Below, one piece after another: positions 31,379 through 46,218 of a stretch of 64,000 nucleotides of DNA. Position numbers and translations under genes: made by a program. Position 1 is the first letter of the stretch. Each line of letters starts with the position of its first letter. Source of the stretch: Heptranchias perlo (taxonomy: Eukaryota); the NCBI RefSeq assembly GCF_035084215.1, contig NC_090347.1:16244001-16308000 (forward strand). The letters run 5' to 3'. Below the pieces are notes generated by a model that saw only the letters and a list, made by a program, of their open reading frames with translations, had not been told where the DNA came from and made no database searches.

Positions 31379-31409
31379 GGGACTATCCGTTCAATGCAGA
31401 ATGGCGGAG
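31379..31409 (+). CDS. Gene 2 exon 2 with start codon (MAE, ATG at 31401)
   Basis: ctctcttttaag acceptor, AGAATGG Kozak context, GAG|GTAAGC donor. Confidence 0.75.
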
Positions 31410-43400: not shown

Positions 43401-46218
43401 AAACAGAAAATCCTGGATAAATAAAGCAGATCCAAAACATCTGCAAACCCATTTGTCCTCACCATCTATCACCCCATCCTTAACCTCCCTTTCCATGCTA
43501 AGATCCTCAAACACATCATCATCTCACAGCTCCGTACCATCTCTCTCAAAATGTCCTGGTTGAATCCCTCCAGTCTGGCTTCTGCCCTTCTCACAGCACT
43601 GAGGTGGCTTTGGCTAAGGTCATGAATGATTTCCTCTATGACTGTAACCATGATATGTTATCTCACCTGTTCTCTTTGACCTCTCCTCCATTGTCCAGGT
43701 CCATGGCACTGCCCTTGCATGGTTCCGTTCCTCCATATCCAAACTCAGCCAGCATATCTCCAGCAATAGATTTCCTTCCTGCCCCCTCTGCACCGTCACC
43801 TCCCTTTCTCATCCACATGCTGCCCAGAAATGACATTATCCGTAGACACGGAGTCAGCTTCAACGTATATGCTGATGACATTCCAGCAGTACCTCTCCAC
43901 CATCTCTTTCAATCTCATAACCATCTCCATGCTGTCAGACTTCACATCAAATTATAAATGAGTAACAACTTCCTCCAATTGAATATTGGGAAGACCAAAG
44001 TCATCGCTTTTGGCCCTGGCCATAAGTTCTGCTCCCTTGTCATTGACTCCATCCACAGCTGAGCTTTAAACCTTACATCACCAAGACTGCTTATTTCCAA
44101 CTCTACAACATTGCCTGCCCCTGCCCCTCTGCTACTAAAAGTCTTATCCACATGTTTGTCATCTCTAGACTATTATTTCAATGCTTCCCATCCTTTACTC
44201 TTCATAAAGTCCAACTTGTCCAAAACTCAGTTGCCCATCACCTTTCCTACATTATGTTCCAGTCACCCATCATTCCCAACCTCATTAACCTATGTTGACT
44301 CCCTTTTCCCTCAACACATTAAAGTTAAAATTCTTGTCTTGAATTAGCCTCTTACAGCCTTATACTGCCTCCCACAACATTTGGTCCCCTGACTCCGACC
44401 TTTTACGCTTTGAGTCTCCATTCATCCCACCATAGGTGGCAAAGCTATCAACTGCCTCACCTCTACTATCTGGAACACCCTCCCTAAACCTTTATGCCTC
44501 TCTATTTCTTTCTCCGTCTTTAAAAATGTTCTCAAAACCCAGCATTTTGAGTAACCGTTCAGTCGCCGCTCCTAATCTCCCCCTCCTTGGCTCAGCACCA
44601 TTCCTCTATTTCCACTTGTGAAATGCTTTGGGATTTTTTTTAATGGCTATTTAAATGCATGTTACTGTTTTGTTAATGAATCAGCTATATATTTCCAGAA
44701 TTTTCTGTTATAAGCAGATAGTTTGGTATTTAGTAATGTTACGATAATGAAACTGAGATTTAAAAAATAAGGACAACTAGTTTCTACTGTAATACTACTT
44801 ACAACCTAGTTAAAAATTTACCACGACTTATTGATGTGACTGAGTGACACAGTAAATTAACCCACTGGCCTTTTAATTCCAGCCCAGATACAATGAATGT
44901 TTGTACAAAATAAATTTGGAAACTTTCAACCCACTTCTTACTGTATGTGAGTACACAATACAAAATGGCACTAAAGGGAAATCTTAGTGAGAGAGGCCTC
45001 AAGGACAACCTCTGTGGAAAATGGAAATTCCACACTAATGTGAAGAGAGGTGGAGTGCTCTTCTAAGCCAGGGCTAAGGCACATTATTGGTGCAGAGTAG
45101 AGGAAACTTACTTTGCAACTGGCATTACAATACCTACCTAGGAGTGCTTGAATCTGACACTGGGTACCTGAAATGAGAGACCCCAGTGCTAACATCCCAC
45201 GCTTTTATGGGCACAAAAATTATCAAAGAAAAAGATTATTTTATGAGCCACTAAACAAAGTTTACGATGAGCTACAGAGATATTAGCCTAGAAATTAGTT
45301 TGTAATATTAGCATACGAATGCCACCTGCTGCATTAGTGGATGTGCTAATCTATTTCAAATAAATGTGTTAAGACCTCAGTTGATATAGTGGACGAAGGA
45401 ATGTGATATAAACATGCTAAGTGCTCATCCACTAATATTGGGAAGTCATTTCTTGACTGTTTCAAGCTAAGAATTTTATCTTTTTTCAGATGGTTCACTG
45501 CGAAAGATCAGAAAACACTGTAAGAATTTTAGACAGCCTGTCAACGCTAAATAAAAAAATGACTTTGGAACAAAACACTGAAGAAAGCAGGAGGTGTGGA
45601 AATGGCCTTTGTTTTGTATCAACAGTTATCAGCTGCTGCTTCTTCCAGGACCACGAAACAAAAACCGACAATTATTTTGGTGCCTCAGTTTCATGTTTTG
45701 GAAAACATCAGAAAGAAATCATGATAGACATATTGTGCTGCCAAACATGGAATGCAGACATCAGCTTGGCAGTGTGTATGGCTTTAGAATGTCATGGACA
45801 GGCTATTAGGTTTCGCCCTAAGGTGCATTCTTTTGCTTACCCAATAAAGGATAATTCTAACACACAGAGAGGAGTGCGCACAATCAATGGTAAACATCAA
45901 CAGTATTCTCCCATACCACCCTGTGGCAGATGTCTAGTCCTATTCCCAGACATAAAAGATGATCTACAACAAAAAAACAATAACCCTCAATTTTGGCAAT
46001 ACGGGAACTGTGCTGAGGTAGAATCTTTAAGCAGGCTTCTAAATGCCCACAGGGACATTTCCGAGAGATTACCTGCTCCTCCAGGGAATCAGTTCACCTG
46101 GAAATCTCTTATCCTTAAAAGAAAACAAAGACTTGTACATAACCTAAAATTATTCAAGTTTAATTTGGGAAGGGATCTTAAATTTTACAGACCTTCTGAG
46201 CCACAGAATACAGCTTAA
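31401..46218 (+). CDS. Gene 2: triple CCCH zinc-finger (ZC3H11A/C12orf50-type) plus putative permuted deaminase, ~465 aa; join(31401..31409,34605..34670,36612..36731,37886..38009,40184..40208,41111..41267,41830..41997,45490..46218)
   Basis: Eight GT-AG exons splice into one open frame (phases 0,0,0,1,2,0,0). N-terminus: DCFFFQYKTCHEKEQCRFLH...VCPEWHRQKKCTNSSCSQKH...CDKELPNNYCKQQNCCMYH. C-terminus: PPCGRC-x25-CAEVESLSRLL. Confidence 0.85.
31603..33800. mobile_element. Nested MITE-like elements: a forward copy (31603-~31825 plus ~33266-33800) interrupted by a reverse copy (~31830-33265)
   Basis: Both are homologous to 12961-13692; 32530-33010 is the reverse complement of ~33290-33790. Confidence 0.7.
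31870..32518 (+). mobile_element. 5'-truncated Tx1/L1-clade LINE 3' end
   Basis: CPLAQRVW...VLYGLFPG...INSVKEALWSARNLLVFQ fits an ORF2 C-terminus; followed by a 3' UTR, AATAAA at 32491 and an A tail. Confidence 0.8.
34605..34670 (+). CDS. Gene 2 exon, first half of CCCH finger 1 (INDYQPEDIDCFFFQYKTCHEK)
   Basis: aatacag acceptor, GTGAGT donor, homologous to 61459-61515. Confidence 0.85.
34968..35700. mobile_element. MITE-like element with short terminal inverted repeats
   Basis: gggccagaatttcctg ... caggaaattctgggcc. Confidence 0.6.
36612..36731 (+). CDS. Gene 2 exon, end of finger 1 and finger 2 (EQCRFLHRESCKLSEDVCPEWHRQKKCTNSSCSQKHLNRE)
   Basis: ttgacag acceptor, GAG|GTACTG donor, 120 nt open frame. 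Confidence 0.85.
37176..37411. mobile_element. Penelope-type terminal-repeat insertion containing a perfect 180-bp palindrome, with a 13-bp TSD
   Basis: Palindrome 37232-37411 centred on CTCGAG; ctcctgtattatg duplicated at 37163-37175 and 37412-37424. Confidence 0.85.
37343..37381 (+). ncRNA. Minimal type I hammerhead ribozyme-like motif (mirror copy on the - strand at 37262-37300)
   Basis: TTCAC-CTGAGGA-A-GGAGG(TAG)CCTCC-GAA-AGCT-T-GTGAA: CUGANGA/GAAA core, helix I and helix II pairing, short palindromic helix III. Confidence 0.6.
37886..38009 (+). CDS. Gene 2 exon, finger 3 (TLKKYFLCDKELPNNYCKQQNCCMYHEKVSYLNGNYRSANE)
   Basis: gttcacag acceptor, AAG|GTACCG donor; resembles the third ZC3H11A finger and its tail as recalled. 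Confidence 0.82.
38100..38585 (+). mobile_element. L2-like 3' fragment
   Basis: Homologous to 28340-28975. Confidence 0.75.
38650..39310. mobile_element. MITE-like element
   Basis: ggggtagaatt ... aactctacccc inverted termini with an AT-rich centre. Confidence 0.5.
40184..40208 (+). CDS. Gene 2 25-nt micro-exon (VPMLAEKR)
   Basis: ttttttatcttcctag acceptor, AAG|GTGAGA donor; needed to convert phase 1 to phase 2. Confidence 0.75.
41111..41267 (+). CDS. Gene 2 exon (SDERDNVMNKNF...GKQYIKE)
   Basis: Within ORF 41046-41342; ctctttcattag acceptor, GAG|GT donor. Confidence 0.82.
41830..41997 (+). CDS. Gene 2 exon (ILHTILFLCHINQP...PTRPPYTILLEI)
   Basis: Within ORF 41809-42030; attttgcag acceptor, GTGAGT donor. 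Confidence 0.85.
42222..42556 (+). mobile_element. CR1 3' end fragment
   Basis: RGHSL...RRNFFTQRVVNLWNSLP-type coding remnant and ttctatgt tail. Confidence 0.85.
43460..44670 (+). mobile_element. Old L2-like LINE fragment
   Basis: IIRRHGVSFNVYADD RT motif and the shared 3' tail. Confidence 0.75.
45490..46218 (+). CDS. Gene 2 terminal exon, putative Zn-dependent deaminase-like domain (242 aa)
   Basis: ttttttcag acceptor directly before the ATG; PPCGRC at 45916-45933, CAE at 46009-46017; AATAAA near 46335 and 46397. Confidence 0.85.
   Translation: MVHCERSENTVRILDSLSTLNKKMTLEQNTEESRRCGNGLCFVSTVISCCFFQDHETKTDNYFGASVSCFGKHQKEIMIDILCCQTWNADISLAVCMALECHGQAIRFRPKVHSFAYPIKDNSNTQRGVRTINGKHQQYSPIPPCGRCLVLFPDIKDDLQQKNNNPQFWQYGNCAEVESLSRLLNAHRDISERLPAPPGNQFTWKSLILKRKQRLVHNLKLFKFNLGRDLKFYRPSEPQNTA

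Follow-up and report, generated by a model that had tools for sequence, protein, structure and literature searches.

Our study identified, in a window of 64,000 nucleotides from the shark Heptranchias perlo (contig NC_090347.1, G000:C26:16244001-16308000; positions are counted from its first letter), a gene of eight coding exons that joins three CCCH zinc fingers to an unnamed enzyme-like domain. The product is probably a deaminase in rearranged form, and the gene belongs to a cluster with a probable link to interferon. The exons, with AG/GT at all of them, have compatible phases and join into 1398 nt, which encode 465 aa and a stop codon with no internal stops, which confirms the frame of about 465 aa proposed in the initial annotation. 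Letter for letter, the translated product agrees with RefSeq XP_067860160.1 (P0191), isoform X1 of Heptranchias perlo; consequently, the gene is real and annotated in RefSeq, although unnamed and uncharacterised, and the earlier description of it as hidden does not hold. The junctions are supported by the RefSeq model and by the models of orthologues, and a chance open frame or wrongly joined exons were ruled out by the clean frame, the homologues and the RefSeq identity. All words of exon 8 also occur in four sequencing runs presumed to be RNA, to which we give no weight as evidence. The gene is conserved as well as real: the finger family PF15663 and the same C-terminal domain occur together in 13 of the 15 long matches, every one of which comes from a cartilaginous fish, and the finger-bearing orthologue keeps 63-82% core identity among sharks. 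In addition, a finger-less isoform of 377 aa (P0016), which starts 3' of the fingers, is also annotated for the Heptranchias perlo gene.

The domain that follows the fingers spans exons 6-8, about 350 aa or profile positions, and starts at about residue 110, earlier than the C-terminal 242 aa of exon 8 in which the initial annotation had placed it. It corresponds to no Pfam family, and exon 8 alone also matched none. Our analysis is based on 192 stored members, isoforms included, and on a conservation alignment of 63 rows. Among the matches listed, the members identified by name are from lampreys, chimaera, sharks, paddlefish, sturgeon, gar and many teleosts, with several copies often present in one teleost genome, and also from lungfish, frogs, turtles, king quail and platypus; no therian mammal was present among the named matches listed (120 of 196 profile matches, with 30 proteins looked up by name). 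Identity across vertebrates is low, and there are lineage-specific expansions with dead copies. The shark paralogues P0020, P0022, P0024, P0027 and P0032-P0034 have lost the CxxC and are possibly pseudoenzymes or decoys.

The family's best conserved residues, kept in 61-63 of the 63 rows, are G287, S289, W310, P367, C368, C371, G395, N396, C397, A398, E399 and E401. The core encoded by exon 8 contains a YFGAS strand (G287 and S289 in 62/63 rows each, giving a strand-2 pattern GAS), two inserted helices and both zinc motifs of the CDA superfamily. The CxxC of the first helix turn after strand 3 is present as P367-C368-x-x-C371 (PCGRC, 367-371), behind a predicted strand at 335-341, and the [HC]xE of a helix start is present as C397-A-E399, within GNCAE (395-399), opening a predicted helix at 398-409; G and E of this motif occur in 63/63 rows and C in 62/63. 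PCxxC lies 15-33 residues ahead of G[NH]C[AG]E in 175 of the 192 stored members, an intact set is wanting in the other 17, and the canonical order was found in none. We infer that C368, C371 and C397 form a joint zinc site with E399. A covarying C368-C397 pair was attributed to the joint loss of both residues in dead copies.

A CDA-like deaminase fold is weakly supported for this domain. The match to such a fold that the initial annotation had expected did come out on top (82-92 residues aligned for CDA/BSD, the BSD alignment being largely collinear), but its scores were below significance. With the 377-aa model, the top match of Foldseek was BSD (E 0.4) and VIA led to helical bundles; BFVD gave no match at E 0.001, in a sequence search of the PDB neither exon 8 nor the 63-row profile found anything significant, and segment-wise hhalign to CDA aligned the motifs alone, with no significant sequence or profile match. 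APOBEC and TadA structures were not among the fold matches listed, which leaves room for kinship. A weak and noisy covariation between I270 and S337 links strand 1 with strand 3, as a 2-1-3-4 sheet needs, but the depth of the input (192 rows, effective 144, 286 columns) is not sufficient to establish contacts. The domain had also been called permuted, and the reversed order of its conserved Cys3-Glu motifs stands; a circular permutation, in contrast, is disfavoured, given that helix 1, strands 1-2, strand 3 and PCxxC keep the order of BSD. Since most of the fold is collinear with BSD, the rearrangement seems to consist in the displacement of a single helix and not in a circular permutation of the chain.

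The three fingers were found in the translation exactly as first read, with spacings C14-x7-C-x5-C-x3-H, C43-x8-C-x4-C-x3-H and C73-x8-C-x4-C-x3-H, and residues 12-106 gave the anticipated Pfam match to zf-CCCH_3 (PF15663; 44.9 bits, E 1.5e-11, cut-off 31). A ZC3H11A-like gene located on another contig of the shark (G000:C30) has finger exons of 120 nt (phase 0-0) and 124 nt (phase 0-1) and an intron within finger 1. These matching sizes, phases and intron, together with the Pfam match, sustain the proposed ZC3H11A/C12orf50 type of the module, and we therefore infer that it was copied from such a gene by exon shuffling; the likeness covers spacings, exon sizes and phases, whereas the remainder of the shark protein belongs to the enzyme-like family. 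The fusion of fingers and family domain was also found in lungfish, reedfish, bowfin and a mormyrid, and the 24 stored members with fingers all have the intact motif set. A quick, unrooted tree built from 58 chosen rows places each of the 13 rows with fingers inside one clade of 27 rows, with a Shimodaira-Hasegawa-like approximate likelihood-ratio support of 100. The simplest reading would be one fusion event that predates the split between sharks and bony fishes. By analogy with related fingers, these three would bind RNA.

The link to interferon comes from motifs of the interferon-stimulated response element (ISRE) type, scanned with a strict consensus that we take to be the accepted one. 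The window contains three of them, against 0.16 expected (0/100 shuffles), and a stretch of 204 kb contains four, against 0.57 expected; this enrichment was noticed post hoc. Three of the four are placed ahead of the gene under study and of two paralogues, which we call B and C, and the fourth lies upstream of the US22 gene described below. The one at 30710 lies 691 bp ahead of the ATG of this gene in a candidate promoter, with a GC box on one side and, on the other, a splice donor near 30831 that would close a putative non-coding first exon. Because the promoter-like regions of B and C are duplicated (87% identical over 989 nt, with two ISREs), their two motifs count as one event.

Our preferred reading, which we hold tentatively, is that the gene encodes an interferon-inducible intracellular antiviral zinc deaminase with a CDA-like fold, steered to RNA by its three CCCH fingers. 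In this mechanism, C368, C371 and C397 would hold one zinc and a water molecule, and E399 would shuttle the proton that activates the water, in the style of cytidine deaminases. The CxE helix, normally situated between strands 2 and 3, would be supplied instead after the PCxxC helix, two inserted helices filling the place vacated in the sequence. The fingers, presumably gained by exon shuffling before the shark/bony-fish split, would bind single-stranded, probably viral, RNA, and bases, most likely cytidines, would be deaminated, mutating or disabling that RNA. Several observations weigh against this reading. The defining order of the CDA superfamily, with the [HC]xE of helix 2 before strand 3 and the CxxC of helix 3, is failed, being reversed in 175/192 members, and the family is therefore not filed under any described clade. 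The search with the isolated domain, in which two different aligners ranked CDA/BSD first, stays below significance. In addition, free nucleosides are the substrates of the nearest structures, and fingers are missing from 168 of the 192 members, both of which bear on RNA as substrate, a part of the reading that could be proposed by analogy only.

It is a distinctly less probable, though serious, alternative that the same rearranged zinc deaminase, with the same immune role, acts on a free nucleoside or nucleotide such as CTP or dCTP, so that viral replication would be starved or poisoned, the fingers merely localising the enzyme on RNA or activating it there. The top structural matches, BSD and CDA, are indeed free-nucleoside deaminases; the many members without fingers imply that the core works without them; and the annotation of this gene itself includes an isoform without fingers. 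On the other hand, the strand-2 GxNxE of bacterial CDA is replaced here by GAS, and the maintenance of the finger module in sharks, lungfish and ray-finned fish would be better explained by a polynucleotide target. Somewhat more doubtful is the proposal that Cys3-Glu is a structural zinc site, or the active site of some other hydrolase, in a new fold whose likeness to CDA is convergent, possibly cooperating with the conserved E167 and H170 of the helical bundle. This bundle has no counterpart in deaminases, H170 is kept in 53 of 54 ungapped rows, every fold score is sub-threshold and a relative with the canonical order was not found among the stored members; against these facts stand the deaminases ranked first by both aligners, the invariant Glu two residues past a helix-start Cys which, together with PCxxC, follows the grammar of deaminases, and the I270-S337 pair, whose noisy signal fits the 2-1-3-4 sheet. 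We consider it improbable that the protein is a housekeeping or developmental deaminase that edits host tRNA, mRNA or a metabolite instead of an immune effector. The fair conservation of the shark orthologue would suit such a role, and host mRNA is the target of ZC3H11A-type fingers in the excerpts of the literature that we used, but the ISRE motifs, the expansions with dead copies, the low identity across vertebrates and the US22 neighbour described below all speak against it.

With respect to known systems (statements drawn from PMC3239186, PMC3113570 and PMC5889660 refer here and below to excerpts of those papers), the shark family shares with the tetrameric CDD/CDA clade, represented by CDA and BSD, the CxE and PCxxC at helix starts and its top, though weak, structural matches; it differs by the reversed motifs, a pair of helices inserted behind strand 2, an additional helical bundle of 120 aa and the GAS in place of GxNxE. 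The bacterial YwqJ-like deaminases (PF14431) resemble it in their Gx[CH]xE signature, an insert between strand 3 and CxxC, a chain cut short past helix 3 and neighbours of the SUKH immunity type (PMC3239186), but have the canonical motif order. PF14431 gave faint matches across the strand-3/CxxC segment, with 1/63 members at E 0.005, and its cut-off was not reached (P0193, 17.9 bits against 25.9). The searches led to no prokaryotic or viral relative of the shark family: none of the pattern matches could be confirmed in GTDB (0/40), IMG/VR (0/26) or the phage records (0), CxxC in frame was wanting at all 17 bacterial YGNCAExE loci, and the YwqJ searches gave 0/301 and 3/201 genomes, two recovered segments having the canonical order and matching in the strand-3/CxxC part alone with about 2 bits. 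Of 115 metagenome pattern matches, one was a member; it contains introns, is teleost-like and most likely represents host DNA (L022:1800-3379). The nearest clusters in the ESM Atlas are unnamed chordate proteins, with no usable named match, and PADLOC and NCBIfam gave single-member matches at chance level only.

The initial annotation had stated that no described vertebrate AID/APOBEC, ADAR or SNAD protein is known to have this architecture, which stands for vertebrates; nevertheless, a CDA of kinetoplastids, LmjF36.5940-like, with two N-terminal CCCH fingers and a proposed role in RNA editing, provides a precedent (PMC3239186). As described there, it is set apart by its standard CDA motifs, two fingers instead of three, and its occurrence in protists. 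The novelty of the architecture is therefore confined to vertebrates and to this domain, and both fusions were probably independent, because the shark fingers share the exons of ZC3H11A. AID/APOBEC, NAD1/2 and SNAD1-4 are also vertebrate deaminases with lineage-specific expansions, and SNAD1 is similarly distributed (fish, amphibians, reptiles, platypus; PMC5889660). The shark family differs in having CxE after CxxC, and none of its 63 members matched the APOBEC, NAD or SNAD families of Pfam at E 0.01, a remote kinship being still possible. In contrast to SNAD, the shark protein appears to have no signal peptide, judged from hydropathy only: the N-terminal stretch of 30 residues is hydrophilic, with a mean hydropathy of -0.92. 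The words 'CCCH' and 'permut' do not occur in the main text of PMC5889660. Our literature search, with most subscription papers outside it, found no description of the family, nor do the passages of bioRxiv 693333 that were covered name it; the figure and supplementary tables of interferon-stimulated genes of that work may list zebrafish members.

If these interpretations are true, an extra deaminase family with reversed zinc motifs exists from lamprey to platypus, and it would represent a branch of innate immunity that has been missed so far in fish, amphibians, reptiles and birds, farmed fish having many copies. To our knowledge, the vertebrate nucleic-acid deaminases were thought to be catalogued as AID/APOBEC, NAD, SNAD and ADAR/ADAT. 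The deaminase fold would tolerate the moving of its catalytic helix, a relocation by which profile searches would miss the family, and a natural single chain of RNA binder and deaminase would be a candidate scaffold for base-editing tools. We propose as speculation, with more doubt than confidence, that there is a vertebrate-wide class of interferon-induced RNA-editing restriction factors, rearranged and independent of AID/APOBEC and ADAR, which derived from a bacterial-type toxin and was kept throughout jawed-vertebrate history beside a SUKH/US22 gene as possible immunity-type regulator, one ancient branch having gained ZC3H11A fingers against viral RNA.

Table. Coordinates of the gene, its exons and the neighbouring features (positions in the window, continued past its end where larger than 64,000).
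Feature	Position	Strand	Basis or remarks
US22 (SUKH-5) gene	19421..23679	+	exon 19421-19885, likely last exon 23551-23679; directly upstream of cluster
GC box (30692) and strict ISRE-type motif (30710-30722), candidate promoter of this gene	30692..30722	+	motif scan
This gene	31401..46218	+	
Coding exon 1 (Met-Ala-Glu)	31401..31409	+	acceptor at 31379; agrees with RefSeq P0191
Coding exon 2, CCCH finger 1 (first half)	34605..34670	+	exon joining
Coding exon 3, end of finger 1 and finger 2	36612..36731	+	120 nt, phase 0-0; ZC3H11A-like exon equal in size and phase
Coding exon 4, finger 3	37886..38009	+	124 nt, phase 0-1; ZC3H11A-like exon equal in size and phase
Coding exon 5, linker	40184..40208	+	25 nt; exon joining
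Coding exon 6, start of the N-terminal helical bundle of the family	41111..41267	+	exon joining, prediction, alignment
Coding exon 7, helical bundle, including the conserved H170 and the HLPxRxPY motif	41830..41997	+	exon joining, alignment
Coding exon 8, deaminase-like core and basic C-terminal helix	45490..46218	+	exon joining, alignment, fold search
Strict ISRE-type motif, candidate promoter of paralogue B	48861..48873	+	CCAAT 48817, donor 48994
Paralogue B, finger-bearing (P0015/P0192, 503-504 aa)	61459-75919	+	extends past window end; first finger exon 61459..61515
Paralogue C, finger-less (P0021), loci L009-L010	95373-87773	-	G000:C26 about 16331770-16339370
Partial inverted gene copy (L011)	108771-107032	-	G000:C26 about 16351030-16352770; finger-2 exon and 3' part of last exon

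No family copies were found elsewhere in the Heptranchias perlo genome, outside this cluster. Paralogue C is probably inactive, as its motifs read PSKRC and GNQAE, and the partial inverted copy has a stop codon in its last-exon match. The US22 gene upstream of the cluster gave the only PF02393 matches found in the 3.25-Gb genome, and US22 is joined to the same family domain in gene models of sturgeon (P0066) and Enoplosus (P0180/P0193). Whether true fusions or merged neighbours, these models imply that the linkage between US22 and the family is old. Fish Gig1 may be US22-like as well, but the literature search gave no paper that confirms this likeness, and 'US22' does not occur in the portion of PMC4337036 covered. 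It has been reported that US22 is a member of SUKH, a superfamily of toxin-immunity proteins (PMC3113570), and that SUKH neighbours accompany at least four bacterial deaminase clades (PMC3239186). Because vertebrate US22 genes have been ascribed to integrated herpesviruses (PMC3239186), the link may represent no more than the co-location of antiviral genes. A strict ISRE on the minus strand at 11207, 8 kb before the US22 exon, has no promoter evidence, and an ISRE core at 6505 lies in a CpG-richer stretch upstream of that exon; either of them could serve a US22 promoter.

Some minor observations concern the gene and its surroundings. The counterpart of exon 7 is skipped in the shark isoforms P0017 and P0019, and by length probably in P0004 and P0018, with loss of the conserved H170 and the HLPxRxPY motif. 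Intron 1 contains a long imperfect inverted repeat (32548-33756) whose arms of several hundred bases are 79-89% complementary, and intron 3 a perfect-spaced hairpin of 98 nt (97%) at 37224-37419. Fragments of reverse-transcriptase/endonuclease frames resembling long interspersed nuclear elements, judged by eye, were present at 31788-32282 and 50149-57441. Downstream of the cluster, a low-complexity open frame of 694 aa near G000:C26 16359227 on the plus strand (L012) is probably an exon of the next gene.

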